Shown: positions 2,235-55,452, counted from the stretch's first letter. The stretch: DNA of 64,000 bases from Verrucomicrobiia bacterium (GCA_026398175.1 JAPLTJ010000121.1:3357-67356), one strand, 5' to 3'. Program-made: numbers and translations. The notes: generated from the sequence alone by a model not told the origin.

Positions 2235-2536
2235 TGTCCAAAATAAAAAAGGCTACACCGAGACGTCATTCCAGCGGACGCTGGTACGTCATTCGTGCGA
2301 AGGCAGGAACCAAGCGGCTGTGGATCTTTATTTTTGGTTTCGTAAAAGTGGTATGATATCACAAAAGGAAGAAATACTTTCTTTAAAAAGAAGCGATGCT
2401 TTATTTTATAGAACCATTAATTCTGTATTGAAGGTCTCCTGGATTCCAGCGTCCGCTGGAATGACGGTAATGTGTAAATGTGGGCATAATATGGTTAGAG
2501 AAGCCTTTTCTTCTGTTAGTAGATTTTATTTTGGAC
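2235..2536 (+). mobile_element. MITE-like repeat, copy 1 (about 300 bp)
   Basis: Termini TGTCCAAAATAAA ... TTTATTTTGGAC. Internal palindromes lie at 2262-2311 (two tandem variants) and 2451-2477. It aligns along its full length with copies 2 and 5. Confidence 0.75.
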
Positions 2537-2559
2537 CAGAGTCAGAGGAAGCGTAACAA

Positions 2560-3072
2560 TTACATCATAATAATTCCCTTTTCCATGGCGCGTGCCAATG
2601 TTTTCTTGGCATCGGCGCTGTAAGCACGTGTTGGGGCAATTTCATCTTCTTCGTCATTGAGAGTTGCTCCTGTTCTCTCTTTTTTCTTTTTATTGATGGA
2701 AGGTCTTCGTGAGCCTCTTTGTCCAACGGGAGCGAGCATTTGGTCCTGGGCCATGGCTGCTTGAATAGATGACTTGGTGGCGTCATCAACTGTCGTGTAT
2801 TGATTGCCAGCTACTGCTTGGTTTGTTGCGGTTGATCCAAAAACAAAAGCGGTGGAGTCATTAGACTGCATGGAATAACTATCAGGAGCAACGGTTCCTG
2901 GTGCCACGCTAACACTTGCCGCGGTGCCTCCGCTAACGCCCGTAGAAGTTTCTCCCTTGCCAGCAGTCGGAGGTGTTGAACTGTTGGAGGGAGAGGCCCG
3001 ATCGTTATTAAATGCCAGCGATGATTGAATCACTTGTGCTGGAGAAATAAGCGTGATGGGATGGTTGGCCAT
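2560..3072 (-). CDS. Hypothetical Ser/Thr/Ala-rich protein, no signal peptide
   Basis: 170-aa ORF. It is the only long ORF between two MITE-like copies. Low-complexity sequence with no recognisable domain. Confidence 0.4.
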   Translation of the reverse strand: MANHPITLISPAQVIQSSLAFNNDRASPSNSSTPPTAGKGETSTGVSGGTAASVSVAPGTVAPDSYSMQSNDSTAFVFGSTATNQAVAGNQYTTVDDATKSSIQAAMAQDQMLAPVGQRGSRRPSINKKKKERTGATLNDEEDEIAPTRAYSADAKKTLARAMEKGIIMM

Positions 3073-3082
3073 GGTTAAAAAA

Positions 3083-3106
3083 GGTTACAGGTTGCAGGCT
3101 ACAGGT
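3083..3106 (-). repeat. Heptamer arm, 10 nt upstream of the start of ORF 2560..3072
   Basis: GGTTACAGGTTGCAGGCTACAGGT is in the same family and orientation as 1491-1520. Confidence 0.65.
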
Positions 3107-3115
3107 AATCATTGC

Positions 3116-3411
3116 TGTCCAAAATAAATATTTCAAAATAAAAAAACGCTACACCTAGACGTCATTCCTGCGAAGGCAGGAAAGAGGGGGCTGTGGATCT
3201 TTATTTTTGTTTTCGCAAAAGTGGCATGATTTCACAAAAGGAAGAAATGCTTTCTTCGAAAAAAGAATTGAGACTTTATTTTAAGCGATCATCAAGTCTG
3301 TGCCGATAGTCGCTGGATTCCAGCGTCCGCTGGAATGACGGTAATGTGTAAATGTAGGCAGAATGTGGTTAGCCAGGCCCTTTCTTCTGTTGGTAGATTT
3401 TATTTTGGACA
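3116..3411 (+). mobile_element. MITE-like repeat, copy 2
   Basis: Same termini. The first palindrome is the variant TTCCTGCGAAGGCAGGAA (3158-3186) and the second is canonical (3315-3341). Confidence 0.75.
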
Positions 3412-3538
3412 AGAGTGACAGGTAATACTACTTGAAGAAAATTTTTTAGTCATTATCGTCAGATTCAGGTATTCTATCAGGATCATTCAAGATGTCGCTG
3501 ATCAAAGTTGGCTGCAATGATGCTCGGCTTTGTGGTTG

Positions 3539-5314
3539 TCATTGCTGTTGGAGTGCTGGTCTGACAACTTCTTCCATATGATTTTTCAGTGCTTGGAATG
3601 CCGCTTCTCTATTTTCAGGCGTGGCCGAAGCAACACCAAAGAAAAGATCGATGGTTTTTTGCATCGAGGAGTCTTTCAGCAAGGCGTTAGCTAGCTTGCC
3701 ATTAGCTCCAAGAATACGAAGATACTCTGCAGTGGTGGTAGGGATTTTTTTGCCAGCGATAACATCGACTTTCTTTCGATCAAAAAATGTTGCGACCGCT
3801 TGCTCAAAACCTTTTGGATCCAGTAATTCGATGAGGGTTGCTCCAGCGCTATGAAAATCAACTTCTGATCCATAAGCTTTTCGATTAAGAACTTCTGGTG
3901 CGAGAGTATCTGGAGTTCCAGCAAGCTTTGTTGAGTACAATGGATTATTATTTTTGGGCGTGGTTATTGCCCCATTGAGCATTTTACTTCGTTTCCCAAA
4001 GACTCCTCCTAAGCCAGCATCGATGACAGTCAATTTCTGATAGGTTGGGCTTTGTGGATCAGCATCAAACATGAGGTTCTCTGTTTTGATATCCCGATGG
4101 ATGAAGTTACGCGCATAAGTTTTTTCTAGAAAACTAAAGAGTTGTTCTGAAATAGTGTGGAAATGCTTGGATCCATCAAGAGGCAGTTCGCGAGATTCTG
4201 GGGCTACAAGTTTTCGGAGTTCCTGTCCAGGTGCTTTTTCCATCAGTTGACCAAGCAAGGCGACGCTTGTACCTAGAGACAAATTTTGTGTAAAAGCTTT
4301 TACTTGTTCGGTAGGGACATAGAATTTTTTTTCTAGTTCGGTAGGCTCTTTTATTTCTAAAATAAAAACAGCTGTCTTTGCAAAGTGAGGCAAGTCGTTA
4401 AGACGTGATGCTGCAATGTCTCCAGTGCGATGAAATTTGCTAGTAGGGCTAGCAATAAAAACACATTTTTCTTTTTCTTCTTTATAAACATATTCTTTAT
4501 AACCAATGGAAGCTGCATAGACCTTTCCAAAAGCTCCTTGTCCAATTGGTTTGGACGCATCGATTTTTACTCCTTTTGTGATGAGATAAGAAATCAGACT
4601 TATTGACGGTGGTATTTCTTTAGTTTCGGAGGAGGGTAGTGAGGGCAACACGTTGTCTAAGCTTTGGAGGTTTTCATTGTTATTTGTAGCAAATAGACTT
4701 TTGAAATTTTTCCCCAAATTTTGATCATTAGGTGCGCTGGAAAGATATTCGCTAAAGCTGTTTTTAAGTAAATTTAGCTGAGCAGGTGTTATCCCAGGAT
4801 AAGCATTTTGAAGAAGATCATAGATGTACAAATTAGTCGCGGTCTTTTCTGCTTCACTTGGAGCAAACCAAAAATTTTTATATTGCAACGCGGCCCCCTC
4901 TTTGGCTTGTCTTAAGACGAGTGTTCCTTTCCCTTCTAGCCCGCTGAGTGAGGAAAGAAGTTCTTTTGCCTGATCTTGTGAACCCTGAAAGGCGTAACGG
5001 GATACTAGCTGTCTAGCAACTGTTGTTATCTGTGTAGCCTCGTAGTTTGCACGAGGAATCGTAATTTTCGCTCCGGACCAAAAAGAAGAAGTGATGGGGG
5101 TTTTTTCTTGTGCTGTAGCTGCAACACGCGCTCTTTCCTCATTTCCTGGTTGAGAATTTGTCTGCCTCACTCTCCATCCAAAGAACGAACAAAATTTTGA
5201 ACTCCAAGATGACTCAACTGACGAAGTGGTGGAGGCGGAGGCGACGACGGTGGCATTGTTGGATGACGAAGATGCGCTTGCTTTATTCATAAATTTATTA
5301 AAATAATCCCGCAA
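3539..5314 (-). CDS. Hanks-type Ser/Thr protein kinase with a large uncharacterised N-terminal region
   Basis: Has a Gly-loop GQGAFGKVY, catalytic loop HRDIKTENLMF, DAG (DFG-like) and APE motifs in the C-terminal half. The alternative start at 5290 would remove the overlap with the upstream gene. Confidence 0.8.
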   Translation of the reverse strand: MRDYFNKFMNKASASSSSNNATVVASASTTSSVESSWSSKFCSFFGWRVRQTNSQPGNEERARVAATAQEKTPITSSFWSGAKITIPRANYEATQITTVARQLVSRYAFQGSQDQAKELLSSLSGLEGKGTLVLRQAKEGAALQYKNFWFAPSEAEKTATNLYIYDLLQNAYPGITPAQLNLLKNSFSEYLSSAPNDQNLGKNFKSLFATNNNENLQSLDNVLPSLPSSETKEIPPSISLISYLITKGVKIDASKPIGQGAFGKVYAASIGYKEYVYKEEKEKCVFIASPTSKFHRTGDIAASRLNDLPHFAKTAVFILEIKEPTELEKKFYVPTEQVKAFTQNLSLGTSVALLGQLMEKAPGQELRKLVAPESRELPLDGSKHFHTISEQLFSFLEKTYARNFIHRDIKTENLMFDADPQSPTYQKLTVIDAGLGGVFGKRSKMLNGAITTPKNNNPLYSTKLAGTPDTLAPEVLNRKAYGSEVDFHSAGATLIELLDPKGFEQAVATFFDRKKVDVIAGKKIPTTTAEYLRILGANGKLANALLKDSSMQKTIDLFFGVASATPENREAAFQALKNHMEEVVRPALQQQ

Positions 5315-6035
5315 TGATATTTACGATCAACGCTAGGATGGAAGTGTTAAAAAGAAAAGAGAGTAATCCATGTAATAAAACGAGTCGGCGTAATCGATGT
5401 GTGGCAATGCCGACATCGGCGACCTGGCAGGTCATTCCGATGACAAAAGAAAAATAGACAAAGTCCCAATAGTCAGGAAATTTTTCTTGGCCAGGAAAAA
5501 CTAATCCTCCTGTGACGCTCTTTTCTTCTTCTGGATCAGGCTTTGTAGCAGATAATGAGGGATCTCTTGCTGGCGGTAAGGGATGATAAAAAAAATGAGC
5601 ATACAAACTTGCAAAGCGCGTATGAACAAAAGTCCACGAAATTGCGATTGTGATCAGTGCAAAAGCAATGCTTTCGGAAACATGAGGAGTAAATTTTTCT
5701 TTTGCTAAACTTAACAAGAACCATGTTGATAAAACACTGGCAATGGAGGCTAGGATGAGGACGAAAAAGAAAAAATGACGCGCAGTGTCGGTGACGCGCA
5801 GTCGTTTTCTAATCGAGTAAGGATCTTTGGTGAAAATTAAAAACCAAGTTAGTATGATGCTAGTCAAAGCAAATCCATCCCAAGCAACAATGGATGGGAC
5901 CGGAAAAAGAAAAGAGTGATGCAGTCCCCAAAAAAGAAGAAGTGCTATCAAGCATTCGATGGCCCAATATTCATGCAAGCGCAAAAAACAATGGAATCGT
6001 TTTGAAGATTGAGTTATTTTTTTGAACGATGACAT
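5298..6035 (-). CDS. DUF1345 family membrane protein
   Basis: Multi-TM protein with the motif DYWDFVYFSFVIGMTCQVADV, which is characteristic of DUF1345. Confidence 0.75.
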   Translation of the reverse strand: MSSFKKITQSSKRFHCFLRLHEYWAIECLIALLLFWGLHHSFLFPVPSIVAWDGFALTSIILTWFLIFTKDPYSIRKRLRVTDTARHFFFFVLILASIASVLSTWFLLSLAKEKFTPHVSESIAFALITIAISWTFVHTRFASLYAHFFYHPLPPARDPSLSATKPDPEEEKSVTGGLVFPGQEKFPDYWDFVYFSFVIGMTCQVADVGIATHRLRRLVLLHGLLSFLFNTSILALIVNIIAGLF

Positions 6036-6062
6036 TATGAAGCCAATAAATTAACACAAATT

Positions 6063-8279: not shown

Positions 8280-8280
8280 C

Positions 8281-8305
8281 TTGCAGAATAACTGTTTTTC
8301 TGCAA
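8281..8305 (+). terminator. Hairpin after the SulP-CA gene
   Basis: TTGCAGAA-N9-TTCTGCAA forms an 8-bp perfect stem starting 2 nt after the stop codon, with T-rich flanks. Confidence 0.5.
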
Positions 8306-8315
8306 TGTTGATTAT

Positions 8316-8564: not shown

Positions 8565-8576
8565 GTTTTCTTTTTT

Positions 8577-8991: not shown

Positions 8992-10545
8992 ATGACTACC
9001 AACTATCAATGCAACCTTCTCCCCGCGAAGACGGGGATGCGAATAGGCTTCCTCGTAGGATGCTTAATCATCCTCGTTACCCTTTTCCGCTTTTGGTACG
9101 CCACGCAGCTTGAGTTGATCGGCGATGAGGCATATTATTGGTATTGCTCGCGGCATCTCGATTGGAGTTTTTTTGATAAGGGACCCGGTGCGGCCGTTAC
9201 CATTTTTTTAGGAACGCATCTTTTTGGAGATACTGTTTTTGGAGTTCGCTTTTTTGCCGTGCTGCTTTCGGCTGCCACTGGCATAGGACTCTTTGTTCTT
9301 GCTCGCATGCTCTATTCGTCGCGTGCGGCTTTTTGGACCTTGATGATAGTGCTCTTCATGCCGCTCTATGCGGTGGGGAGCATTTTGATGACGATTGATC
9401 CGCTGAGTATCTTTTTTTGGACGATGGCGGCTATCTCATTTTGGAAATCCACAAAAAGTGACAAGATTTGGTTTTGGATTCTCACGGGAGCTTTTGTTGG
9501 TCTTGGAATGTTAGCCAAATATACAAACTTGGTTGAGTTGCTCTGCTTTGCTCTTTTTTGCCTTTGGAGCCCAGCCCAACGTCGTCAATTCAGGAGGCCT
9601 CATTTCTACGTGATGTTGGCTACCGTCCTCTGCTTTGCCTTTCCTATGATTATTTGGAATTGTGAACATCACGGCATTGGCATTATCCATCTTCTTCACC
9701 GAGGCGATCTGGATCACGCCTGGAGTGTTAAACCCGTTGAGATCCTCACCTTTCTTGGCGCACAAGCCGGGGTCATTTCACCATTCTTTTTTCTTGGAGT
9801 GATGCTTTCTGTTTTTTGGCCTCAATATGATGATCTTCATGCAGAGGCGACACGTTATTTGCGTTCTCTCTTTATTCCTCTTTTTGTTTTTTATTCCTGT
9901 CTCAGTTTGAATAAAGCGGCGGAGCCAAATTGGCCTGCTCCTTGTTATGTTGCAGGAATGATCTTGCTGGCTGGTAATTGGCAGGCACTTGTGCGTCGTT
10001 GGCCTTGGGCAAAAAAATGGGTTGTGACTGCTTTTGTCATTGCTGCCCTTGAGACTGTCCTGTTGCACAATACTTTTTGGTTGCATCTTCCTTTGCCTCA
10101 ATCTTGGAATCAGAGCAAAAATCCCATCGTTCAAAAAATAAGTGAGGCTTATCGCAACCTGGGAGTTGTTGATCCTCTTGATCGAACCAGGGGAGGGGCT
10201 TCCATTGCGCAACATGCTTTGGAGCTTTCTCAAAAATATAAAACCTCATTTTTTATTTCCGACAATTATCAAACAGCAAGCCTCTTGAGTTTTTATCTTC
10301 CTGCTCATCCTGATACCTACGAGGCCGATTGGGGGCGGATCAAAGATCAATTTTCCATCTGGCCTGGATACCATCAGCAATATGCTCCAGGAAGCAATGC
10401 TATCCTTGTGTACGAATGGAGATATCCGCCGAGAGAAATGTGGTATGATTTTTCTCGGATGCCACTCCTCGACGAATACTATTCAACAACAGGCACGCGG
10501 CCGCTTAAAAAATATTACTATTCTCTTTGTGAGGGGTTGCGGTGA
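8992..10545 (+). CDS. GT39/ArnT-family (GT-C) glycosyltransferase
   Basis: Polytopic membrane protein with the N-terminal loop motif GDEAYYWYCSRHLDWSFFDKGPG, typical of ArnT/PMT_2. Confidence 0.85.
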   Translation: MTTNYQCNLLPAKTGMRIGFLVGCLIILVTLFRFWYATQLELIGDEAYYWYCSRHLDWSFFDKGPGAAVTIFLGTHLFGDTVFGVRFFAVLLSAATGIGLFVLARMLYSSRAAFWTLMIVLFMPLYAVGSILMTIDPLSIFFWTMAAISFWKSTKSDKIWFWILTGAFVGLGMLAKYTNLVELLCFALFCLWSPAQRRQFRRPHFYVMLATVLCFAFPMIIWNCEHHGIGIIHLLHRGDLDHAWSVKPVEILTFLGAQAGVISPFFFLGVMLSVFWPQYDDLHAEATRYLRSLFIPLFVFYSCLSLNKAAEPNWPAPCYVAGMILLAGNWQALVRRWPWAKKWVVTAFVIAALETVLLHNTFWLHLPLPQSWNQSKNPIVQKISEAYRNLGVVDPLDRTRGGASIAQHALELSQKYKTSFFISDNYQTASLLSFYLPAHPDTYEADWGRIKDQFSIWPGYHQQYAPGSNAILVYEWRYPPREMWYDFSRMPLLDEYYSTTGTRPLKKYYYSLCEGLR

Positions 10546-14443: not shown

Positions 14444-14510
14444 ATTCGCAGGGATGGAAGTAGATAAGAAAAAGAATTTACAGGGATGGAAGCGATGGAA
14501 GGGATACTGG
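14444..14510 (+). repeat. Purine-rich arm(s) after the helicase stop (two sub-copies)
   Basis: ATTCGCAGGGATGGAAGTAGATAAG and ATTTACAGGGATGGAAGCGATGGAAGGGATACTGG. Confidence 0.8.
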
Positions 14511-14605: not shown

Positions 14606-14637
14606 CAATCCCTTCCATCGCTTCTATCCCTGTGAAT
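14606..14637 (+). repeat. Complementary pyrimidine-rich arm covering the esterase GTG start
   Basis: CAATCCCTTCCATCGCTTCTATCCCTGTGAAT pairs with 14478-14507 (26 WC + 2 G.U of 30, hand count). Confidence 0.8.
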
Positions 14638-16377
14638 TTCTTCTCGCTTCTGTCTTCTGTTGTTGTTGCCAGCTTCTTGCTAGCGACAGCACACGCCGAC
14701 GTGACAATGCCAGCGATCTTTGGAGATCATATGGTGATGCAACAAGGAACGTCATTGCCGATTTGGGGTGAGGCTGATCCAGGCGAGCGAGTAACAGTGA
14801 AATTTGTGGGACAACAAGCAATGACCACGGCAAGAAAAGATCGGCAATGGCGCGTGAACTTGCAAACGGTTTATCTGAGGAGTTCTCCAGATGTCTTGAT
14901 GGTTGATGGAAAAAATCATCTCGAATTTTCGGATGTGATCATGGGAGATGTCTGGCTCTGCTCCGGGCAATCTAATATGGCGTTTCCTTTGCGAGAAGCC
15001 GATGGAGGAGAGACGGCGATTATTCATGCTGAAGATGGCCAGTTGCGTTTTTTTGTTGTTCCTGAAAAGCAAGCTTTTCAACCTCAACATCAAATGGAAG
15101 GAAGTTGGGAGCGCTGCTCGCCAGAGGCTGCGGCAGGATTTTCTGCGATTGGTTATTTTTTTGGACGCGATCTTCGAATGGCAACTGGCATGCCCGTTGG
15201 ATTAATTGGAAGTTATTGCGGAGGCAGCTCAGCGCAAGCGTGGATGAGTCTTCCTGCGCTTCAGCAGTCACCTTCTTTCAGTCATTATCTTGCAGAATAT
15301 TATCAGGGCGCCCGTGATTTTTCAAAAAATCAGGACACTTATTCTCAGCGAAAAATGGATTATGAGCAAGAGCTAGCTGCCTGGGAAGAGCAGGTAGGAA
15401 CGCCCTATCAAGAAGAACTGGCAACTTGGAAACTCAAATGCAAAGAGGCTTGTTCAAAACTTTGGGCGCAGCCATTAAAACCAGATCCACTTTCGCAAAA
15501 ACCAACACCTCCTTTGCCGCCAGACGGAGGTGTTACGGCGCCAACACTGCTTTTCAATGCTATGATTGCCCCGTTGATTCCGTATGCCATGACCGGTGTG
15601 ATTTGGTATCAGGGAGAGTCTAATGAGAATAGGAAATCTCAGCATTCTTGGATGGCTCAATTTGAGAATAATAGTGTTGACAGCACCGTTTTTTCAGTTT
15701 TTGAATACCGACGTCTTTTTCAACGGTTGATTCGTTCATGGCGTGTAGCTTGGGGAGAGGGACCATTCCCTTTTTATTTTGTGAGTTTAGCTGGATTCCG
15801 TAAGTCAACGTTCGATCCTGTCGAAATGTTGATGGATGATGAAGGGGGCTTGAATCCTTGTTGGGCTTGGTTGCGCGAGGGTCAAGCCGTCGCGCTCTCA
15901 CTGCCTGAGACAGGGATGGCAGTGGCTACTGATATTGGCAATCCTAACGATATTCATCCCAAGGATAAACTTGATGTGGGACGGCGGTTGGCATTGCTCG
16001 CGCGGAAAAATCTTTACGGTCAACAAGTCGTAGCGAGTGGTCCGACTTATTGTTCGATGAAACAAGAAGAGAAAAAAATTCGTCTGACATTTAACGATGT
16101 TGGCAAAGGCCTGACTGTTGCAGCTCCGCCGTGGCGGTATGATGGGACGATCGTGATGCCGCTTTCCCTTCAAGGTTTTGCCATTGCAGGAGACGATCGT
16201 CATTGGTACGACGCTGTTGCTCTCATTGAAGGAAGTGATATCATCGTCTCCAGCGAGTTTGTTTTAAAACCAACAGCGGTTCGTTACAATTGGAAAGATA
16301 ATCCCACGGGCAACCTCTACAACAAAGAGGGATTGCCTGCGGCGTCATTTAGAACGGATTTGGATCAACCGAAGTAA
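14632..16377 (+). CDS. Sialate O-acetylesterase (SASA/SGNH-like) family protein, secreted
   Basis: The GTG start gives the signal peptide MNFFSLLSSVVVASFLLATAHA. GDVWLCSGQSNM is the esterase nucleophile motif. Confidence 0.8.
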   Translation: MNFFSLLSSVVVASFLLATAHADVTMPAIFGDHMVMQQGTSLPIWGEADPGERVTVKFVGQQAMTTARKDRQWRVNLQTVYLRSSPDVLMVDGKNHLEFSDVIMGDVWLCSGQSNMAFPLREADGGETAIIHAEDGQLRFFVVPEKQAFQPQHQMEGSWERCSPEAAAGFSAIGYFFGRDLRMATGMPVGLIGSYCGGSSAQAWMSLPALQQSPSFSHYLAEYYQGARDFSKNQDTYSQRKMDYEQELAAWEEQVGTPYQEELATWKLKCKEACSKLWAQPLKPDPLSQKPTPPLPPDGGVTAPTLLFNAMIAPLIPYAMTGVIWYQGESNENRKSQHSWMAQFENNSVDSTVFSVFEYRRLFQRLIRSWRVAWGEGPFPFYFVSLAGFRKSTFDPVEMLMDDEGGLNPCWAWLREGQAVALSLPETGMAVATDIGNPNDIHPKDKLDVGRRLALLARKNLYGQQVVASGPTYCSMKQEEKKIRLTFNDVGKGLTVAAPPWRYDGTIVMPLSLQGFAIAGDDRHWYDAVALIEGSDIIVSSEFVLKPTAVRYNWKDNPTGNLYNKEGLPAASFRTDLDQPK

Positions 16378-24266: not shown

Positions 24267-24316
24267 GAAGAAATTTAACCGCGAAATACGCGAAAAAACG
24301 TAATCAACATCACTGG

Positions 24317-24606
24317 TGTCCAAAATAAAATTACTCGCATGCTATGCGTATGACTTTTCTGAAAAAGCAGGAGTATCTTATTTCAGTGCTACTCAGCAAT
24401 CCTAGTAACCGTCATTCCAGCGGACGCTGGAATCCAGGCGAAGGTCAATTCAGATTTGATCGCTAGCGTCAAAAAAATTAAAATAATTAGTAAGGATGAG
24501 AAAATACTTTTACGAAAACAAAAATAAAGATCGCCTCCTCGCGGAGGCGAGGACCCAGAAGAGACCACCAACCAGCGTCCGCTGGAATGACGGTGGTGTA
24601 GCTGGA
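24317..24606 (-). mobile_element. MITE-like repeat, copy 3 (diverged; one terminus missing), between rfbF and rfbG
   Basis: TGTCCAAAATAAAA at 24317. Palindromes at 24411-24437 and 24573-24592, plus an extra hairpin CGCCTCC-TCGC-GGAGGCG at 24531-24548. The centre matches copy 4. Confidence 0.65.
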
Positions 24607-24836
24607 ATCTGGCTAGTGGCGATTTTTCTTTTTTTGATGAATATACCTTTCACGAATGATTTTTAGGAATTTCTGCTTGTTTCTTTTTCCTCTGGCTGTG
24701 TTACCCTCGCTGACGTTATGTACGCATAGCGCTGCGCTCGGTCGCCTTGCCAGAGAAAAAAGCTCCAGCGCATAATTGTCCTAAAAATCATCCGCAAAAG
24801 GTATACGTTAGTACGAATTTAGCGGTTTGTTATTTT

Positions 24837-40839: not shown

Positions 40840-40888
40840 AAAGAAGCATTAGCCACAAAGTAAAACAAAAAATATTTAGAAACACTCT

Positions 40889-41133
40889 TGTCCAAAATAC
40901 ACCAATCAATAGAAGAAAAGCAGCAACTAGCCACACCGCCATCATTCGAGCGGACGCTGGAATCCAGCGACTGACGATCTTTATTTTTGTTTTCGTAAAA
41001 GTGTTGTTTAATCCTCCTCAATCTTTTTAAATTTTTTTGACGCTACTACTCAAATGTGAATTGACCTTCACCTGGATTCCAGCGTCCGCTGGAATGACGG
41101 TTAATCGAGTTGTCAAATAGCATTGAAATAAGA
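40889..41133 (+). mobile_element. MITE-like repeat, copy 4 (3' terminus truncated), between sufB and sufD
   Basis: TGTCCAAAATAC at 40889. Palindromes at 40943-40966 and 41074-41100. The core GATCTTTATTTTTGTTTTCGTAAAAGTG is shared with all long copies. Confidence 0.65.
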
Positions 41134-41185
41134 TTTTCTTCTTCTTTCTTTTTTATTGTACGTTCTTCGTAGTTAATTTTTTTAT

Positions 41186-43524: not shown

Positions 43525-43740
43525 CAGGCAGGAGGCTACAGGCTGGAGGCTAGAAGAGAGGCTGAAGGCGGAGGGCTGAAGGCTGAAGGAAAAGCAATTT
43601 TGAGTTGCTAGTTTATGATTCATGCTAGTTTTCTTTGTGGGCATTCTTTTTTGCCATATAAGAATTGTTTTCCATTAAAATGCGAGAATATCAAACTAAG
43701 TTTTCTTCAGCCTTCAGTCTTCAGCCCTTAGCCTTCAGCC
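43525..43740 (-). repeat. Arm pair (CTTCAGC family) between hypothetical gene 43740..45455 and the MidA-like gene
   Basis: On the minus-strand RNA, GGCTGAAGGCTAAGGGCTGAAGACTGAAGG pairs with CCTTCAGCCTTCAGCCCTCCGCCTTCAGCC as 10 + 10 + 7 bp, separated by a 2x2 and a 1x1 mismatch. The spacer is about 115 nt. Confidence 0.8.
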
Positions 43741-45455
43741 TATTTCAGAATCTCCCTCACATAGACATTGACCGTCCCATCATTTCCCTTTTTAACATCG
43801 GTAATCATAAAAGGGTGATCTTGATTGCGTGCAACTGAAGTCCCTTCAGCAGGAGGTACTGCTCCAGCAGGATAAGCAACGATGATGCGCATTTTTGTGA
43901 TGCCATCGGGTGTCAGCGAGGAATTATTTGATTGGTAGCGGAGGACAGAGCGGTCTTGACCAGAGGCTGTCACCGCAAAATCTCCTTGAAGATAAAGCCG
44001 CTCACCAGCAAGTCCCTGTTCTGCAAGATCGCGAAGTTGTGGTGCAGCGACGAAGCGTCCGCGAGGCATTTTTCCAGGGTCGTATGTTGGCCACAATGGA
44101 TTATTGGAATCAGGAAGAGGGCCTCTTTCGGTAATTGCCATTGGGGTTCCGGGAGCAGGAGCAAACGATGTAGGCGGCGGCAGACTGGATTGATTGGCAG
44201 CAGCAAGAGCTGGTGCCGCTTCTGCTTCGAGAGGAGTTGTTGAAGAAAGGGGCGTTGCTGTTGGAAGAGGCGCGACCTGTTTCGCAGGAGCCACTGGAAG
44301 CGCTACTGGAGTTGCAGGCAGCACTGCTGGCGTGTTCAGAGGAAGTGCACGAGCCACTTTTGGGGCAGTGACAGGCACTGCTTTTGCTGCGCGCGAAATA
44401 TTTTTTAAAAATGATTTTTTGGCAGAGGCCGCTAGTTTGTTAGAAATAATTTGTAAGATAAAGGCAGAGTTGGGCTGCACCGTTTGTTGTGTCCCTTCCT
44501 GCCTAGAAAACCCCATCTTCGTACGATAATCTGCATGCTGTGTCTCTGCCGAAATAAGATCTTTTGGAGGAAGCAAAGGAAGTCCTCCTTCGATATTGAG
44601 GTGAGCCGGTGGTGCTAGTGAAAAGAGAACAGGGCCGCTGCTTGTAGGTCCATAACTTCCATAAAGAAGCGAGATGGTGGTCAATTTTAAATGTCCATCG
44701 GGAAGTTTTTCAACATGCAGGATGGCGGAAAGGTCTAAAGGCTTTTCAAATTTAATCTCTTGGCCTGGAGTGAGCGCCTGCTCTAGAGGATTGAGATCAT
44801 TAGACATTTTTTCAAATTCTACTGCTGGTGCGACAGGCTGTGCTGCTCCACTATTAGTGCCAGTGAGTATCTCGTGTATACTGCGGGTCTGCGCATCAGA
44901 GATTCCTTTCACTTCACTAGCGCGATCGATTTTTGAAATAAGTTTACTGTTTACTGCCGGAAAAACCTGCTCCAAGAGGATTTCTGGCTGGTCTACTGAT
45001 TGAAGCAAGGCGCACATTCCTGGATAAAAAAAATTTTTTTTAGTGAGCGGAAAAGCAGCCAAGACGCGATAAGTCTCGGTGACATAGGGTGTCAAATCGT
45101 GCGTCTGATGATAATTGCGAAGAAAGTTAGAAAGGAGTCGATCGTTTAAGCGTCTCGTTTCACGTTGGCCGAGCGGACCAAAGCGCTCGAGAAGTTGTTT
45201 TGGTTTTAGGAATTCACCGCGCGGTGCTTCTGTCAACTCGAAGCGTTGAGGCTCATCTAATTTATGAAGCCTCATGAGGAGATGATAATTCACTGATTTT
45301 TCAGGATGCCCAAAAACATAGAAGCTTCCTATCCAGCAAAAAAGGGCAAACCCCATCAGCAAGAAGATAAAAATAGTCCACGCAAATATCCCGTCAACAC
45401 CATGGGCGCTGGCTCGTCGTGGTGTGGCGCTAGGAAAACGATTGTAATTTTTCAT
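43740..45455 (-). CDS. Hypothetical membrane-anchored protein with a Pro/Ala-rich linker
   Basis: One N-terminal TM (IFAWTIFIFLLMGFALFCWIGSFYVF), a PA-rich tract of about 90 aa and a C-terminal domain of about 120 aa. Start at MKNYNRF. Confidence 0.55.
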   Translation of the reverse strand: MKNYNRFPSATPRRASAHGVDGIFAWTIFIFLLMGFALFCWIGSFYVFGHPEKSVNYHLLMRLHKLDEPQRFELTEAPRGEFLKPKQLLERFGPLGQRETRRLNDRLLSNFLRNYHQTHDLTPYVTETYRVLAAFPLTKKNFFYPGMCALLQSVDQPEILLEQVFPAVNSKLISKIDRASEVKGISDAQTRSIHEILTGTNSGAAQPVAPAVEFEKMSNDLNPLEQALTPGQEIKFEKPLDLSAILHVEKLPDGHLKLTTISLLYGSYGPTSSGPVLFSLAPPAHLNIEGGLPLLPPKDLISAETQHADYRTKMGFSRQEGTQQTVQPNSAFILQIISNKLAASAKKSFLKNISRAAKAVPVTAPKVARALPLNTPAVLPATPVALPVAPAKQVAPLPTATPLSSTTPLEAEAAPALAAANQSSLPPPTSFAPAPGTPMAITERGPLPDSNNPLWPTYDPGKMPRGRFVAAPQLRDLAEQGLAGERLYLQGDFAVTASGQDRSVLRYQSNNSSLTPDGITKMRIIVAYPAGAVPPAEGTSVARNQDHPFMITDVKKGNDGTVNVYVREILK

Positions 45456-45807: not shown

Positions 45808-45816
45808 AAGAAGAAT

Positions 45817-45978
45817 GTAACGAGTAAAGAGTAAAGGGTAAAGAGTGCAGAGACCTTCAAGTCATCTCAGTTGTAGTTCATAAAAAAAATTATCCTATCA
45901 GATCAAAATTAAATATTAAAAATAAAATAAACCTACCCAAGAACTCTTTACCCGTTACCTTTTAGCCTTTACTCTGCC
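45817..45978. repeat. Arm pair (GTAAAGA / CTCTTTAC family) in the divergent iscA-mutL region
   Basis: GTAACGAGTAAAGAGTAAAGGGTAAAGAGTGCAG and CTCTTTACCCGTTACCTTTTAGCCTTTACTCTGCC flank a very AT-rich spacer of about 93 nt. Confidence 0.75.
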
Positions 45979-45992: not shown

Positions 45993-47774
45993 ATGGGACG
46001 CATTCATCTTCTAAGTGACATTGTCGCAAACCAAGTGGCTGCTGGGGAGGTGGTGGAGCGGCCCGCTTCGGTACTCAAGGAGCTTATCGAAAATAGTATT
46101 GATGCCGGCGCAAAGAAAATCCTCGTTGAATTTAACGGAGGGGGCGTTGAATTGTTGCGCATCACCGATGATGGCTCTGGGATGGATCGTTCCGATGCAT
46201 TACTTTCGCTCGAACGTCATGCCACCAGCAAAATTCGGACGATTCATGATTTGGCCTTAGTGAATACGCTCGGATTTCGCGGAGAGGCCTTGCCTAGTAT
46301 TGCGAGTGTATCTCGTTTTCGTCTTATTACTCGTCAACAAGAAATGGAGGTTGGCACTGAGATCAAGGTGGAAGGAGGAAAGATTGTTGAAGTGAAAGAA
46401 AGCGGCGAAGCTCCTGGGACTAAAATTGAGATGAGGGATCTTTTTTATAATGTTCCGGCACGCCGGAAATTTCTCAAAGGAGAACAGACGGAAGCCGCGC
46501 ACTTGATAGCACAATTACAATTCTTAGCGGTAGCGCATCCCGAGATTGCATGGACTTGTGTGCGTGATGGAAAAGAAGTTTTTCGCTTGGGGGCTACCGA
46601 GAGTCTTGCTGTGAGGCTTAGCGATCTTTACGGTTCTCCTTTTCTCAAGCGGATGAAAGAAGTGATGCCGTTAGAAGTTGACGGAATAGTGGTGCGAGGA
46701 TTTTTTGCGCGTCCTGGAGAAGGGCGTTCCGATCGGTCACATCAATTGCTTTTTGTAAATGGACGGATCATTCGTAATAACCTTTTGTCTCAAGCCTTGA
46801 GAGAAGCGTGCGATGGAATTTTGCCAAAGGGGCTTCATCCTCCTGCCGTTCTCTTTTTTGAACTCGATCCCGCCAAGCTTGATTGCAATGTCCATCCGGC
46901 AAAACGAGAAATTCGTTTTCAAGAGCCAGCCAAGCTGAAAGCAGCTGCATTGAGGGCGGCCGCGAGGGTGATGGGAAACTTTGAACAAGCAGCGACAGGG
47001 ATTCCTCCACTGCAAGAGATTGCTCGGTCGTATCAGGTGCAACGGAGAGAATATCCGACAGAACTTTTTTCTGAAAGAAATGCGATCATCGAAGAAAAAG
47101 GAGAGCGTCATGCATCCCCTCTAGAAACCAGTGTTCAAGAGCCTATCGCGGCCATAGAAAAAATTCCATTTCGTTATCTCGGTAATTTAGCTCAACGTTA
47201 TTTATTGTTGGAAGAAGAGGAGGGGCTCGTTTTGTTGGAAATTAGCGGAGCGCTTGAACGCATCACCTATGATGCGCTTTATCAAACGCTCTTGAGGGGA
47301 GCTTTGCAACGTCAACCGCTCCTGCTGCCACAGGTCGTTGAGCTTTCTCCGGCGGAATCTTCTTGGATCATGGCGCATCAAGAACTTTTAGAAAAAGCGG
47401 GAGTCGAAGTGGAACTTTTTGGAGAAGAGACAAGAGCCTCGGTCTCTCAGAGTCTCAAAGTCGATGCTGTTCCTGTCATCGCAGCTCAAGTTCCAGTGGC
47501 CACATTGTTGCAACAACTCGTTCACGATTTTCAACAAGAGGAATCTAGAAGTTCGCTCAAAGAAGGAAAGCGTGTCCTTGCTGTTGAGGAGACATTGGCA
47601 CGCTCCGTGAGCGGCATGGTAGCTCAAGCAAAAAAATTGCCAGAGGGAGAAACGGCAGCCGTGATGCTTGTTCGAGATCTTCTGCGTTGCTCACTTCCTT
47701 ACTCGACTCCTTCAGGAAAACCGACGATGATCCAACTTTCGCAAACTGAATTGCGAAGAAAATTTAGTAAGTAA
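45993..47774 (+). CDS. mutL: DNA mismatch repair protein
   Basis: GHKL ATPase motifs (IAAGEVVERPASVLKELIENSIDAG, DDGSGM, GFRGEAL) and the C-terminal dimerisation region. Confidence 0.93.
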   Translation: MGRIHLLSDIVANQVAAGEVVERPASVLKELIENSIDAGAKKILVEFNGGGVELLRITDDGSGMDRSDALLSLERHATSKIRTIHDLALVNTLGFRGEALPSIASVSRFRLITRQQEMEVGTEIKVEGGKIVEVKESGEAPGTKIEMRDLFYNVPARRKFLKGEQTEAAHLIAQLQFLAVAHPEIAWTCVRDGKEVFRLGATESLAVRLSDLYGSPFLKRMKEVMPLEVDGIVVRGFFARPGEGRSDRSHQLLFVNGRIIRNNLLSQALREACDGILPKGLHPPAVLFFELDPAKLDCNVHPAKREIRFQEPAKLKAAALRAAARVMGNFEQAATGIPPLQEIARSYQVQRREYPTELFSERNAIIEEKGERHASPLETSVQEPIAAIEKIPFRYLGNLAQRYLLLEEEEGLVLLEISGALERITYDALYQTLLRGALQRQPLLLPQVVELSPAESSWIMAHQELLEKAGVEVELFGEETRASVSQSLKVDAVPVIAAQVPVATLLQQLVHDFQQEESRSSLKEGKRVLAVEETLARSVSGMVAQAKKLPEGETAAVMLVRDLLRCSLPYSTPSGKPTMIQLSQTELRRKFSK

Positions 47775-47783
47775 AATCACTCT

Positions 47784-48084
47784 TGTCCAAAATAAAATTT
47801 ACCAACAGAAGAAAGGGCCTCTCTAATCACATTCTGCCTACACTTACACATTGCCGTCATTCCAGCGGACGCTGGAATCCAGCGTCCGTCGACACAGAAT
47901 TGATGATTTTCTAAAATAAAGTCTCACTTCTTTTTTAAAGAAAGCATTTTCTCCTTTTGCAACATCATACCAATTTTACGAAAACAAAAATAAAGATCCA
48001 GAGCCGCCTGGATTCCAGCGTCCGCTGGAATGACGTTTGGGTGTAGTGTTTTTTTATTTTAAAAAAATTAATTTATTTTGGACA
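47784..48084 (-). mobile_element. MITE-like repeat, copy 5 (full length), 9 nt after the mutL stop
   Basis: Both termini are intact. Palindromes at 47856-47886 and 48010-48035. It is the reverse complement of the copy 1/2 layout. Confidence 0.75.
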
Positions 48085-48108
48085 CCACTGAAGTGAAATA
48101 TGCTTTTT

Positions 48109-48140
48109 CCTTCAGTCTTCAGTCCTTAGCCTGTAACCTG
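48109..48140 (+). repeat. Arm (CTTCAG/CTGTAAC words), 5 nt upstream of the NUDIX-like gene
   Basis: CCTTCAGTCTTCAGTCCTTAGCCTGTAACCTG. The short partner ACTGAAG lies at 48087-48093. Confidence 0.65.
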
Positions 48141-48145
48141 TTTTT

Positions 48146-49950: not shown

Positions 49951-49973
49951 AACTTATAGGCAATTGACACGCC

Positions 49974-51062: not shown

Positions 51063-51075
51063 TTCTCATACTATT

Positions 51076-53287: not shown

Positions 53288-53523
53288 CGGGCTGAAAAAT
53301 AGAATATCCAAGTCCAAAGCGTAATGACGGCAAAAAATGCAGGAATCATTAAACCAGGAGGTTGAAAAACACGAGAGAGATGAAGGCGTGATGCCACGAT
53401 GGCCGTTCCCCAGGTCCCAATGATGCCGACGATCATGCACATCAGCCAGCCTGGAAAGTAGGCTCCCCCAATATTAATGAGAGGGTCGTGGTTCAACTTG
53501 ATGATTGCTAAATTTTCCAACAT
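53284..53523 (-). CDS. DUF1656 small membrane protein (AaeX/YdhI-like)
   Basis: 80 aa with two TM segments, located directly upstream of the HlyD gene. The start at MLENL excludes the repeat-derived extension. Confidence 0.7.
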   Translation of the reverse strand: MLENLAIIKLNHDPLINIGGAYFPGWLMCMIVGIIGTWGTAIVASRLHLSRVFQPPGLMIPAFFAVITLWTWIFYFSAR

Positions 53524-53552
53524 AGTGAATAACTGCCAACGTGCCATTGGCA

Positions 53553-53712
53553 GTGTTGAAACGTTGAAGTGTTGAAATGTTGAAACGAGGCTCATTTTAA
53601 TATGTTGCCGTGAGTTATAGAACCAAGACTGTTTTTATTGTCAATTTTTACTGAGGTTTAAAACCTCTGTTCAACGCTTCAACATTTCAAGAGCTGCGGA
53701 GCAGCATTCAAC
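53553..53712. repeat. Arm pair (GTTGAAAN / NTTTCAAC octamers) in the divergent DUF1656-TolC region
   Basis: GTGTTGAAACGTTGAAGTGTTGAAATGTTGAAACGAGG and GTTCAACGCTTCAACATTTCAAGAGC... share a perfectly complementary 13-nt core, TTGAAATGTTGAA. Confidence 0.75.
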
Positions 53713-53746
53713 TTTTTTCTTCTCGTTGCTTATAAAACTAATTTTC

Positions 53747-55300
53747 ATGAGATATCTGCGCGGACTGATTATATATCTTTTTTTCTTTTGGGGAAGTTCT
53801 CTTCTTGCTGCCGTAGAAAGTTCTTTTCAAGAAAAGCATGCTGCCGCTGCGGGACCTGAAATGCTGCCACGAAGTGGGCAGAATCCCCGCGAAGGAGGGG
53901 ATCCAGCTAGCGTTGCTACGACCTCAACTAGTAACTTAAACTGTCGCGAAGCGACTTCAGCGTCTCAGTTTTCTTCTCAAAAAAGTTACAATCTTGGAAA
54001 CTTAATTGATCTTGCGCTCAATAATAATCCTTCTACACGCGCAGCATGGAGTCAAGCAAAGGCTGCTTCAGCCTCCGTAGGAGAGGCTCGTTCTCTTTAC
54101 TATCCATGGGTAAAAACTGGTTTTACTGGAGGGTACGACCAGAATTATCTTCCTCTTGTTGCAGGTCCTAATGTCTACAACCGGACTCAGGCCACCGTTT
54201 TTTTTAGCTTAGAATATATTTTGCTCGATTTTGGACGAAGGGATGCTGATGTGGCGCGGACGATCGCTACCTTCAACGCGCTTGGTTTGACTTATCAACG
54301 GAAGTTGCAAGAGATTATTTTTGCCGTCCAGAAAGTTTATTTTGCGCACGAGGCTGCTCTTTGGAAAAAAAAGGCAGCAGAAACGAACCTCGCTTTTTTA
54401 TCAACCCTAGCTGATATGATTGCCCGAGAAAATGTTACTGGTTTGTCAGCAGGACCAGAGCTGCTCAAAGCACGAAAACAAGTTCTCGAAGCTCAGTATG
54501 AGGTGGAGGCAGCTACGGCGAAGGTCAAAAATACATTAGGAGAACTCTGCGTTGCTACGGGGCTTCCAGCTAACACTCCTTTGCAAATCACAACGACAGA
54601 GCGTCCTGTTTCCACCAAAAAATTACGAGGGGATGCCAATGAATTAGTGCGTCGGGCGCTTGTCTTTCGTCCTGATATTGCCGCTCGTGTCGCAGAGCTG
54701 AAAGCCAGTAAAGAAGCCACGCGACGAGCCATTGCTGATTTTTTTCCTGTTATTAAACTGCATTCAGACTATATCAACAGCACTTTTGGATACACTGCGA
54801 ATGATGGGACCTTGAATGGAACGCATAATAGAAATGGAAATTCTGGAGTGAATGGTTTTGTCATGGCGAGCTGGGATATTTTTGATGGTTTGGAGCGCAT
54901 CTTTAAAGTTCGGCAGCGACAAGAAGAAGATAAAGTTGCTGAAAGAAACTTAGAACAGACAAAGTTGAATACAACACGAGATGTTTGGACTTCTTACAAT
55001 GATAGTTTGACAGCAGAGCAACGTGTTAATTTTGCTGAAGGGTATGTGGCCTCTGCTAAAGAAACATTTGATGCCGTCAAAACGGCCGTGGAAACAGGGT
55101 TAACGAATGTTACTGATTTTGCTGAGTCAGGGAGTAATGTTGCTAATTCTGATTCAGAATTGGCTAGTGCTGTCGCGGATTATTCAACAGCATTGGCTCT
55201 TCTTGCGTTTTCAGTGGGGACCACTACTCCTGCGCCCTCGCGTGTTCCTCAGGACTTGGGAAAGCCCGGGGAATTGAAGTTGAAGGCGTTCTCGTTTTAG
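53747..55300 (+). CDS. TolC-family outer-membrane efflux protein
   Basis: Signal peptide MRYLRGLIIYLFFFWGSSLLA and two OEP repeats with coiled-coil segments. Confidence 0.85.
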   Translation: MRYLRGLIIYLFFFWGSSLLAAVESSFQEKHAAAAGPEMLPRSGQNPREGGDPASVATTSTSNLNCREATSASQFSSQKSYNLGNLIDLALNNNPSTRAAWSQAKAASASVGEARSLYYPWVKTGFTGGYDQNYLPLVAGPNVYNRTQATVFFSLEYILLDFGRRDADVARTIATFNALGLTYQRKLQEIIFAVQKVYFAHEAALWKKKAAETNLAFLSTLADMIARENVTGLSAGPELLKARKQVLEAQYEVEAATAKVKNTLGELCVATGLPANTPLQITTTERPVSTKKLRGDANELVRRALVFRPDIAARVAELKASKEATRRAIADFFPVIKLHSDYINSTFGYTANDGTLNGTHNRNGNSGVNGFVMASWDIFDGLERIFKVRQRQEEDKVAERNLEQTKLNTTRDVWTSYNDSLTAEQRVNFAEGYVASAKETFDAVKTAVETGLTNVTDFAESGSNVANSDSELASAVADYSTALALLAFSVGTTTPAPSRVPQDLGKPGELKLKAFSF

Positions 55301-55323
55301 AATAGTTAATAGAATAATGCTCT

Positions 55324-55452
55324 TGTTCAAAATAAAATCTACCAACATAAGAAAGTGCCTTGCTAACTACATTCTGCCTACACTTACACATTACCGTCAT
55401 TCCAGCGGACGCTGGAATGACGTCTGGGTCTAGCGTTTTTTTATTTCGAACA
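55324..55452 (-). mobile_element. MITE-like repeat, copy 6: 129-bp short form with a single palindrome
   Basis: TGTTCAAAATAAA ... TTTATTTCGAACA. Both end segments of the long form are joined at one GTCATTCCAGCGGACGCTGGAATGAC (55396-55421). Confidence 0.7.

Follow-up and report, generated by a model that had tools for sequence, protein, structure and literature searches.

A family of MITE-like elements with two inverted CGTC-type REPs in a Chthoniobacterales chromosome

The window, that is, the whole 64-kb stretch of DNA analysed here, belongs to the chromosome of an uncultured soil-type Verrucomicrobium (Chthoniobacterales) and contains six related non-coding elements, c1 to c6. All of them are located in intergenic spacers, each between co-directional genes in a chromosomal housekeeping context. 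An earlier note on this DNA had reported six copies together with their distances to gene ends; all six are present at or within a few bases of where it placed them, and the distances are about as it gave them. The copies, their palindromic units (REPs), their terminal inverted repeats (TIRs) and their 9-bp target-site duplications (TSDs) are as follows.

2229..2543, + strand: c1, full length, 315 bp (nhmmer E 2e-95), flanked by two - strand genes, a 170-aa hypothetical one (at its stop) and a putative cyclase gene (at its start)
2220..2228: left TSD of c1, AGAAGAAGC; right copy at 2544-2552, AGAGGAAGC, 8/9 identical
2264..2312, + strand: left REP of c1, a tandem hybrid of two REP variants, truncated CGTCATTCCAGCGGACGCTGG and then CGTCATTCGTGCGAAGGCAGGAACCA
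2439..2466, - strand: right CGTC-1 REP of c1, CGTCATTCCAGCGGACGCTGGAATCCAG
3110..3417, + strand: c2, full length, 308 bp (nhmmer E 1e-106), between a Ser/Thr-kinase gene and the 170-aa hypothetical gene (- strand)
3101..3109: left TSD of c2, ACAGGTAAT; right copy at 3418-3426, ACAGGTAAT, 9/9 identical
3160-3187 (+ strand) and 3313-3340 (- strand): REPs of c2, the left one being a compensated stem variant, CCTGCGAAGGCAGG
24311..24640, + strand: c3, mosaic subfamily, right terminus lost, between NTP-transferase and epimerase genes
24311-24329, 24410-24437 and 24572-24592: intact left TIR, REP and half REP of c3
40883..41140, - strand: c4, within the suf operon in the sufB/sufD spacer, far terminus lost
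40883-40901, 40940-40967 and 41072-41099: TIR, degenerate REP and intact REP of c4
47778..48090, - strand: c5, full length, 313 bp (nhmmer E 4e-106), at the mutL stop codon, upstream of a NUDIX gene
47769..47777: left TSD of c5, AAGTAAAAT, overlapping the mutL TAA; right copy at 48091-48099, AAGTGAAAT, 8/9 identical
47855-47882 (+ strand) and 48008-48035 (- strand): REPs of c5
55318..55458, - strand: c6, short form of ~140 bp, with an outer-membrane efflux gene on one side and a GH31 gene on the other

Three copies (c1, c2 and c5) are full length at 308-315 bp, two (c3 and c4) are truncated mosaics, and one (c6) is an internally deleted short form; sizes range from 140 to 335 bp over all six copies and from 140 to 315 bp for the intact and short forms. 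The full copies are mutually ~85-90% alike, and their end-to-end alignment, as described before, was reproduced (nhmmer E 1e-95 to 1e-106). The inverted termini also proved real, but the length previously assigned to them was too short: the TIRs are imperfect repeats of 19 nt, 5'-CAYTSNTGTCCAAAATAAA, with outermost ends 5'-CA...TG-3', and they set the limits of the three full copies at 2229-2543, 3110-3417 and 47778-48090. In c1, c2 and c5 this TIR is present at each end; c3 and c4 have it at a single end. The terminus TGTCCAAAATAAA has 22 matches at ≤2 mismatches in the window versus 4.2 ± 2.1 expected. Two arms unlike each other, ~25-45 nt and ~60 nt long, flank a core of ~160-200 bp, in which two inverted CGTC-1 REP hairpins, their CGTC heads facing out and their CCA(G) tails facing in, enclose a spacer of ~130-150 nt. 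In five of the six copies the same arm points towards the upstream gene, an orientation bias that is not significant.

The view that c3 and c4 form a subfamily with one terminus lost is upheld; the missing termini are on opposite sides, and the c4 spacer is oriented opposite to that of c1 and to c4's own arms. An extra arm in c3 (24360-24405) is common to c4 and to locus L073. The stretch at 55324-55452 was rightly called a short form: c6 has lost the whole inter-REP segment, leaving a single perfect palindrome, CGTCATTCCAGCGGACGCTGGAATGACG (55395-55422). Internal ORFs of the copies are short, not conserved and spurious, and no transposase is encoded in any copy, as had been concluded before. 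For the longest internal ORF (78 aa, 2320-2553), a search of 5.8 billion proteins gave only 2 relatives; both are the same locus in strain variants, and no extra copies of the element were recovered through it.

The palindrome motif gave 9 matches at ≤3 mismatches in the window versus 0 in 100 shuffles. Two palindromes per full copy had been described, and two are there, but the perfect symmetry ascribed to them is a property of c6 only, where the symmetric 26-mer GTCATTCCAGCGGACGCTGGAATGAC lies at 55396-55421; those in full copies are asymmetric (CGTC-ATTCCAGCG-GA-CGCTGGAAT-CCAG), and the left one of c1 is a single tandem hybrid. CGTC-1 REPs are defined by an unpaired CGTC (sometimes TGTC) head, an 8-bp stem beginning with AT, a 4-nt loop and a CCA tail (PMC3733652), and CGTC REPs are often paired in inverted orientation (Di Nocera et al. 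2013, PMC3733652). All of these features are found here. Every intact REP in the window starts with an unpaired CGTC, and the heads in related loci are CGTC in 131 of 150 REPs and TGTC in 15 of 150; stem, loop and stem read ATTCCAGC, GGAC and GCTGGAAT, the 8-bp stem starting with AT and the loop being 4 nt; the partner arm is complementary in all stem variants (ATTCCCGC, ATCCCAGC, ATTCCGGC and ATTCCTGC); and window REPs have a CCA(G) tail, with CCA also present in 120 of the 150 REPs of related loci. Judged by sequence, the palindromes are CGTC-1 REPs, the class that includes Neisseria dRS3, with the same head, stem, loop, tail and inverted pairing, and the REP/dRS3 resemblance pointed out earlier has become a formal match. 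The motif itself is not new, as the same palindrome 23-mer is present in many phyla. Five phyla have been given for CGTC repeats, Verrucomicrobia not included (PMC3733652), and the window extends the range of CGTC-type REPs to Verrucomicrobiota. Whereas published CGTC REPs are free units or dimers with spacers of 20-100 bp, without an associated dedicated transposase (PMC3733652), the dimer in the window has a ~130-150-bp spacer and lies inside a transposon bounded by TIRs and TSDs.

Insertion of these elements duplicates 9 bp of the target, and orthologous sites are empty in relatives. The earlier note had proposed a search for TSDs; in the three intact copies a 9-bp duplication abuts the TIRs at identical boundaries (9/9 in c2, 8/9 in c1 and 8/9 in c5), these boundaries being the best among all ±8-nt offsets, with a null P(≥8/9) of 1.8e-4 per copy. 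Both ends plus a duplication are present in these three copies only; a clean 9-bp duplication was not recoverable for c3, c4 and c6, and there is none at the TIR boundaries of c6. A 13-nt direct repeat, TAGTTAATAGAAT / TAGTTAATAAAAT (55303-55315 and 55472-55484), flanks c6 at offset positions. The sufB/sufD site of c4 is empty in L081, L078-80 and L082-83, and the mutL/NUDIX site of c5 is empty in L081 and L085. In locus L081 (SufB 95% identical), which is syntenic over 38.5-48.7 kb of the window, sufB and sufD are 43 nt apart and mutL and the NUDIX gene 51 nt; the former gap is 40-53 nt in five further relatives, and the latter is 13 nt in L085. When c5 and one duplication are taken out, collinearity with the relatives is restored. 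The metagenome scan with MutL yielded only 3 relatives, enough to show empty sites but too few to survey a population. The polymorphism comes only from comparison with relatives ~75-82% identical in DNA; the near-identical strains L088/89 share the c1 insertion, present at 98% identity in these independent metagenome contigs. Amplification is not recent, because the copies are only 85-90% alike.

As the earlier note expected of a mobile family, insertion sites are thus polymorphic (c4 and c5), and copies are not restricted to the window: related elements occur at L034, L060 and L087-89, and the core occurs at many Chthoniobacterales loci. The 9-bp TSDs and the empty orthologous sites strengthen the reading as non-autonomous, TIR-bounded MITE-like units. 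These elements are a real MITE family, a fairly ordinary miniature transposon distinguished mainly by its two REPs. The exact window family looks confined to one narrow lineage, and the high genome-wide load proposed for it is an extrapolation from six copies. Locus L087 was considered as a product of deletion between c1 and c2 and rejected, as its right flank differs from the c2 flank.

Very probably, the window contains a family of non-autonomous MITEs moved in trans by a DDE-type transposase. Such an enzyme, encoded elsewhere, would bind the TIRs, make a 9-bp staggered cut and move the whole unit in trans, and the REPs would ride along as cargo or act as structural or host-factor sites. Since the copies sit in short spacers between co-directional genes, they are probably co-transcribed; the RNA would form a long, very stable hairpin (z = -9.1 and -7.8 for predicted energies of -97 and -110 kcal/mol), with possible effects on the stability, processing or termination of the transcript. 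No transposase was found among the 20 largest or flanking window ORFs, and no autonomous element with matching ends in the window, in 89 genome and metagenome loci (~0.7 Mb) or in viral contigs; a TIR search at ≤4 mismatches over all related loci returned only MITE copies and L034. Three sets of candidates were rejected: an IS-sized TIR pair at L039, which encloses an ordinary membrane-protein gene; an IS66 element polymorphic in L078/L080, whose ends are unrelated; and 24 viral-contig matches to a degenerate TIR, all single and none related by nhmmer, which are chance matches. The IS4 family (IS10/IS50 type) makes a 9-bp target duplication and has ends starting 5'-C(A/T), as the window elements do, although no transposase gene was found here. 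The CTCTTG in the window-element terminus resembles the IS50 inside end, CTGTCTCTTG, which is a lead only. Duplications of 8-10 bp are also made by IS1, IS256 and ISAs1-type elements.

Alternatively, the copies could be REPIN/REP-type elements moved via their hairpins by a RAYT or an IS200/IS605-like HUH tyrosine transposase, the kind of partner suggested in the earlier note, with the TIRs being incidental. The paired, inverted REP hairpins and their unpaired tetranucleotide head do resemble REP doublets, and the REPINs of Pseudomonas and E. coli, whose two inverted REP hairpins form a larger hairpin, are likewise non-autonomous and dispersed intergenically; RAYT-like enzymes moving CGTC REPs were left open by Di Nocera et al. 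(PMC3733652). However, HUH single-strand transposition produces no target duplication and does not need TIRs, whereas the intact copies all have a 9-bp duplication abutting their TIRs. REPINs are characterised by GTAG heads and a dedicated RAYT gene and lack both TIRs and target duplications; none of this is true of the window elements: their REP head is CGTC, and a RAYT/HUH-type gene is absent among the annotated window ORFs. A tyrosine transposase gene flanked by CGTC REPs was not found in the published survey either (PMC3733652). Because of the TIRs and the 9-bp duplication, a RAYT/IS200-like enzyme is disfavoured and a DDE-type enzyme acting in trans is favoured, and we regard movement by the former as highly improbable. 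It is also unlikely that selection maintains the elements mainly as functional RNAs or regulatory modules, be it as portable terminators, as hairpins that stabilise mRNA or as small-RNA genes with a promoter of their own, mobility being merely historical. In favour of this reading, the predicted fold is very stable, T7ATTTT follows directly after the long hairpin on the gene-sense strand in c1, c2 and c5, a T7 run lies 13 nt downstream of the c6 palindrome, on the other strand a small hairpin and a T-run come after the left REP, and an extended -10-like TGGTATGAT is present in the c1 and c5 spacers; the shared arm orientation and the sRNAs arising from Coxiella QMITEs (PMC5896051) point the same way. 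Yet Rfam gave 0 matches at the gathering threshold over the whole window, a simple scanner found no gene-sense terminator, and simple promoter and terminator scans gave no consistent gene-sense signal. No -35 accompanies the -10-like box, which is not conserved, c2 reading CATGAT instead and c4 lacking it; the orientation bias is not significant, and a strong terminator in c4 would be harmful inside the suf operon. Moreover, the element is dispensable, because relatives without it at the same spacers keep the gene order. A tRNA scan of the window found none.

The copies directly show later change through REP-REP interactions: a deletion between the two palindromes has yielded c6, the c4 spacer has been inverted, and REP variants have been replaced or duplicated in c1 and c2. 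A second Chthoniobacterales MITE family (SMAG_U8253-type) has the same core within other TIRs, CTGGACTTTGGCCATTTTT, and a TSD of ~5 bp (L050 TTAAC, L054 TTTAA, L066 AGTAA), both different from those of the window family. The homology between the two is limited to REP-spacer-REP; positions 57-217 of c4 and 116-282 of L054 are 80% alike, the similarity ending at the CGTC heads and leaving arms without similarity. It is conceivable, if rather doubtful, that what actually moves or is exchanged is the REP doublet: a REPIN-like cassette with CGTC heads as its limits would have been placed in unrelated MITE chassis or passed from one to another, and the TIR element would be only one vehicle. REP variants do turn over within the otherwise conserved copies c1 and c2, and L084 carries a different REP-pair element in the same mutL/NUDIX spacer. 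On the other hand, bare doublets with their own insertion signature were not demonstrated, the homology extends ~13 nt past the head on one side, the 5-bp duplication is based on 3 perfect and 1 near-perfect case among only 8, and the same mosaic could arise by recombination or gene conversion among related MITEs. Keeping to MITEs mobilised by a DDE-type enzyme, we tentatively suggest that CGTC REPs, at least in Chthoniobacterales, may disperse inside them as a head-bounded REP-spacer-REP cassette. At least two unrelated chassis would carry it: the first has CA...TG ends and duplicates 9 bp, the second has CTGGACTTTGGCC ends and duplicates ~5 bp. If so, the cassette would be transferable between mobile elements, or repeatedly recruited through a benefit to MITE or host. 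Hitch-hiking in TIR/TSD-bounded MITEs would provide a concrete, testable route for a REP class reported without a dedicated transposase.

Neisseria Correia elements (NEMIS/CREE) and other bacterial MITEs are TIR-bounded, 100-400 bp long, intergenic and often co-transcribed, and their long hairpins can be cut by RNase III or act as terminators. In Correia elements the TIRs are 26 bp long, the duplication is TA, and there is an IHF site rather than dRS3-type REPs; the window elements are alike in size class, TIRs and long hairpins, but their termini and 9-bp duplication are unrelated. A REP inside a TIR-bounded unit, previously thought distinctive, has a precedent in QMITE2 of Coxiella burnetii, a small non-coding element with TIRs and a REP inside (Wachter et al. 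2018, PMC5896051). QMITE2 is 150-190 bp long, has long direct repeats of variable sequence (7-11 nt), contains a GTAG REP targeted by IS1111, and occurs mainly in 3' UTRs and intergenic regions in full-size forms and short, essentially bare-REP forms (PMC5896051). The short forms parallel c6; the window element differs in being ~310 bp long, with two inverted CGTC-type REPs in place of one GTAG REP, a long spacer and a host from another phylum. Likened by description, QMITE2 is at most an architectural analogue.

The elements inserted in very short operon spacers (suf, mutL-NUDIX and hyp-cyclase) and left the genes intact, so they could serve as natural probes of how a long RNA hairpin affects operon expression in a little-studied phylum. 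They also mark strain-level rearrangements (L087) and matter for annotation. Short-read assemblies break at them, as in contig L077 (99.3% identical), which stops ~40 nt past sufB at the c4 edge, a repeat-induced break. They yield spurious ORFs and false starts as well: the left-terminal CAT of c1 adds an ATG upstream of the cyclase ORF and in frame with it, giving that gene a MASS- extension.

All six copies of the MITE family named in the earlier note are present, and one repeat search connects all six regions. The palindrome motif gave nine matches in the window (three mismatches or fewer) as compared with none in 100 shuffles, and the terminus TGTCCAAAATAAA gave 22 matches (two mismatches or fewer) when 4.2 +/- 2.1 were expected. 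The full-length copies c1, c2 and c5 align over their whole length with roughly 85-90% identity (MAFFT), and a profile made from these copies finds all three again at E 1e-95 to 1e-106, with E 1e-15 to 1e-28 for the remaining three. Co-directional genes flank each of the six copies:

c1, 2229-2543, full length, neighbours a hypothetical 170-aa gene and a cyclase gene
c2, 3110-3417, full length, neighbours a Ser/Thr kinase gene and a hypothetical 170-aa gene
c3, truncated mosaic, neighbours NTP-transferase and epimerase genes
c4, truncated mosaic, neighbours sufB and sufD
c5, 47778-48090, reverse strand, full length, neighbours mutL and a NUDIX gene
c6, short form, neighbours an outer-membrane efflux protein gene and a GH31 gene

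The DNA is chromosomal, of Chthoniobacterales (Verrucomicrobiota), with about 44% G+C; proteins labelled Chthoniobacterales by their sources share 86-95% identity with its SufB, and the best matches of its coding DNA are Chthoniobacterales MAG loci. The genes are of the housekeeping type (sufCBD, mutL, pheT, deaD and sugar-nucleotide enzymes). No transposase was found among the 20 flanking or largest window ORFs scanned, and the Rfam and tRNA scans of the window gave zero matches.

The inverted ends proposed from the sequence alone are real but longer than stated, being 19 nt with the consensus CAYTSNTGTCCAAAATAAA. With the element limits set as 5'-CA...TG-3', the nine bases outside both ends form a direct repeat in each of the three intact copies:

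c2, left ACAGGTAAT, right ACAGGTAAT
c1, left AGAAGAAGC, right AGAGGAAGC
c5, left AAGTAAAAT, right AAGTGAAAT

This 9-bp register outscores all other offsets within +/-8 nt, and the null probability of eight or more of nine bases matching is 1.8e-4 per site. A fixed 9-bp duplication abutting the terminal inverted repeats (TIRs) is the signature of staggered-cut (DDE-type) transposition, and such a duplication is not expected from HUH/RAYT or IS200/IS605-type movement. The 9-bp duplication and C(A/T) ends make an IS4-like transposase a tentative candidate. The short form c6 is flanked by a 13-nt direct repeat (TAGTTAATAGAAT at 55303-55315 and TAGTTAATAAAAT at 55472-55484), which lies 2 nt and 13 nt off recognisable TIRs and therefore misfits the 9-bp rule. 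At c1, the CAT of the element's terminus supplies the ATG at which the cyclase ORF is called (2229-2231, minus strand). The in-frame ATG at 2217-2219 was probably the ancestral start; c1 would then lie just 9 nt upstream of it, the length of the duplication itself.

Empty sites were found in relatives. With c5 and a single repeat of its target duplication removed, the window is collinear with two comparison loci, L085, where the mutL-NUDIX spacer is 13 nt, and L081, which has a 95% identical SufB and shares synteny with window 38.5-48.7 kb (72-83% DNA identity). In L081 the sufB-sufD and mutL-NUDIX gaps are 43 and 51 nt, and the sufB-sufD gap is 40-53 nt in L078-80 and L082-83. The same mutL-NUDIX spacer in L084 (2965-3240) holds another twin-palindrome element (GTCATCCTCGCGAACGCGAGGACCCAG type), reading CTGGGTCCTCGCGTGCGCGAGGATGACGG ... 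CGTCATCCTCGCGAACGCGAGGACCCAG with the heads pointing inward; this spacer has thus been hit independently. A related CCTCGCG-type palindrome occurs within c3 (window 24534-24556) and in the L034 copy. The c1 insertion is common to the close strain variants L088 and L089 (98%). In L087, a 94.5% identical variant, c1 is joined (560-664) to another right flank, in which a heptamer array precedes a gene beginning MKLTYYGHSCFEV, without a matching duplication, which argues for a rearrangement at the element and suggests recombination between two MITE copies. Locus L077, 99.3% identical to the window, stops about 40 nt past sufB, at the c4 edge, as is typical of repeats in short-read assemblies. An IS66-family element (DDE_Tnp_IS66, 466 aa) is itself polymorphic, being present in L078 (15362-17002) and L080 and absent at 15362 of the otherwise identical L079; its ends (GTAACTACCAAC...) are unrelated to the MITE termini.

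A full copy consists of a TIR, a left arm of 25-45 nt, a REP with its head outward, a spacer of about 130-150 nt, an inverted REP, a right arm of about 60 nt and a TIR, and its two arms are dissimilar. As each REP is palindromic, a pair of REPs in inverted orientation is at the same time a pair of near-direct repeats. In c6 all sequence between the two REPs is gone; a simple deletion between them would produce its single perfect CGTC...GACG palindrome. The c4 spacer is inverted relative to the c4 arms, and the profile matches c4 on both strands. Copies c3 and c4 each lack one terminus, at opposite ends, and have a third arm type in common with L073. In c1 the left REP joins two variants as a tandem hybrid, and in c2 it is a compensated stem variant.

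Each palindrome is asymmetric, reading CGTC / ATTCCAGC / GGAC / GCTGGAAT / CCA(G). CGTC-tagged REPs are defined by an unpaired CGTC (or TGTC) head and a CCA tail, with 8-9-bp stems starting with A-T pairs and 4-5-nt loops, and their family CGTC-1 (8-bp stem, 4-nt loop) takes in Neisseria dRS3 (Di Nocera et al. 2013, PMC3733652). All CGTC-1 features are found in the window palindromes, which bears out the dRS3 association made in the earlier note. An exact scan for the 23-mer ATTCCAGCGTCCGCTGGAATGAC across 185,579 species genomes gave at least 76 loci, where about 0.02 matches in 596 Gb are expected by chance. Among the matches listed, these lie in very distant phyla: Verrucomicrobiota (Chthoniobacterales), Gammaproteobacteria (Xanthomonadales and uncultured), Zetaproteobacteria, Alphaproteobacteria (Sphingomonadales), Betaproteobacteria (Burkholderiales), Bacteroidota and Dehalococcoidia. 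Of 150 perfect-stem units in the listed matches, 131 have a CGTC head, 15 a TGTC head and 120 a CCA tail; their loops are GGAC, GAAA, GGAA or GAAC, and the stem variants ATTCCCGC, ATCCCAGC, ATTCCGGC and ATTCCTGC are altered on both arms. Tandem clusters with a spacing of about 110-145 bp were seen in L008, L049 and L072, and many copies in MAG MFD04580.bin.2.93 and Zetaproteobacteria Dive96_bin10. REP-like palindromes at window 9020-9038 (TCCCCGCGAAGACGGGGAT) and 53884-53902 (TCCCCGCGAAGGAGGGGAT(CCAG)) lie within the 5' ends predicted for the ORFs of a PMT_2 glycosyltransferase and an outer-membrane efflux protein; either they are REP relics inside the genes, or the start codons have been mis-called.

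Outside the window, among the loci compared, the right arm and TIR of the window type occur only in L034 and an L060 fragment, and many Chthoniobacterales loci match profile positions of about 19-243 only, the REP-spacer-REP core. In MAG SMAG_U8253 the core is embedded in an element of 354-563 bp whose TIRs are different (CTGGACTTTGGCCATTTTT, 0-4 mismatches) and whose duplications measure about 5 bp (perfect in L050, TTAAC, L054, TTTAA, and L066, AGTAA; 4/5 in L009; others unclear). Pairwise BLAST limits the likeness of the two families to the core, the arms being without similarity; c4 57-217 and L054 116-282, for instance, match at 80%, stopping at the CGTC heads. With core-only similarity and different TIRs and duplications, one REP-doublet module thus sits in two transposon chassis, which apparently use different transposases. 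Recombination among MITEs could explain this, and so could transfer of the module in its own right. On an unproven reading, CGTC REPs are spread as the cargo of MITEs that a DDE enzyme mobilises.

The window family is a genuine MITE, and Coxiella QMITE2 is the nearest described architecture. QMITE2 has TIRs, 7-11-nt direct repeats variable in sequence and an internal GTAG REP, exists in full-size and bare-REP short forms, and prefers 3' UTRs (Wachter et al. 2018, PMC5896051). The window family differs in its REP class (CGTC-1), its two REPs around a long spacer, its host phylum and its core common to a second chassis. Assignment as a REPIN was rejected on the REP head and on the presence of a target duplication, and assignment as a Correia element was also rejected. 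No account of elements of this kind in Verrucomicrobia came up in our literature search.

The RNA fold of c5 has an energy of -97 kcal/mol (z = -9.1) for the gene-sense strand and -110 kcal/mol (z = -7.8) for the other; the two REPs form a 28-30-bp duplex, and there is pairing between the TIRs too. In c1, c2 and c5, T7ATTTT comes after the long hairpin on the gene-sense strand, and in c6 a T7 run comes 13 nt after the perfect REP hairpin; on the opposite strand the left REP is followed by a small hairpin and a T-run. An extended -10-like TGGTATGAT in the spacer is not conserved in c2 or c4. As a consensus scanner found no gene-sense terminator, and the same operons are kept in relatives without the element, effects on RNA are plausible but unproven. 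The MITE is dispensable.

Inverted pairs of arrays of about 7-nt repeats (GTAAAGA, GGCTGAAGG, GGGATGGAAG and similar) surround AT-rich cores of about 95-120 nt in the window, and single arrays also occur:

45811-45847 and 45940-45972, inverted array pair
59148-59184 and 59280-59312, inverted array pair
43554-43593 and 43698-43745, inverted array pair
14468-14505 and 14608-14645, inverted array pair
3078-3106 and 48105-48144, single arrays

The repeat sequence differs from pair to pair, yet both arms are complementary. The pyrimidine-rich downstream array stops 10-25 nt upstream of the start codon (mutL, NUDIX and the ORF at 59332), and the fold calculated for the mutL leader has -32 kcal/mol (z = -2.6); the pairs may be 5'-UTR or promoter structures. 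Arrays in the same style occur at further Chthoniobacterales loci (L034, L048, L054 and L087), and the c2 target duplication lies at the end of one heptamer array.
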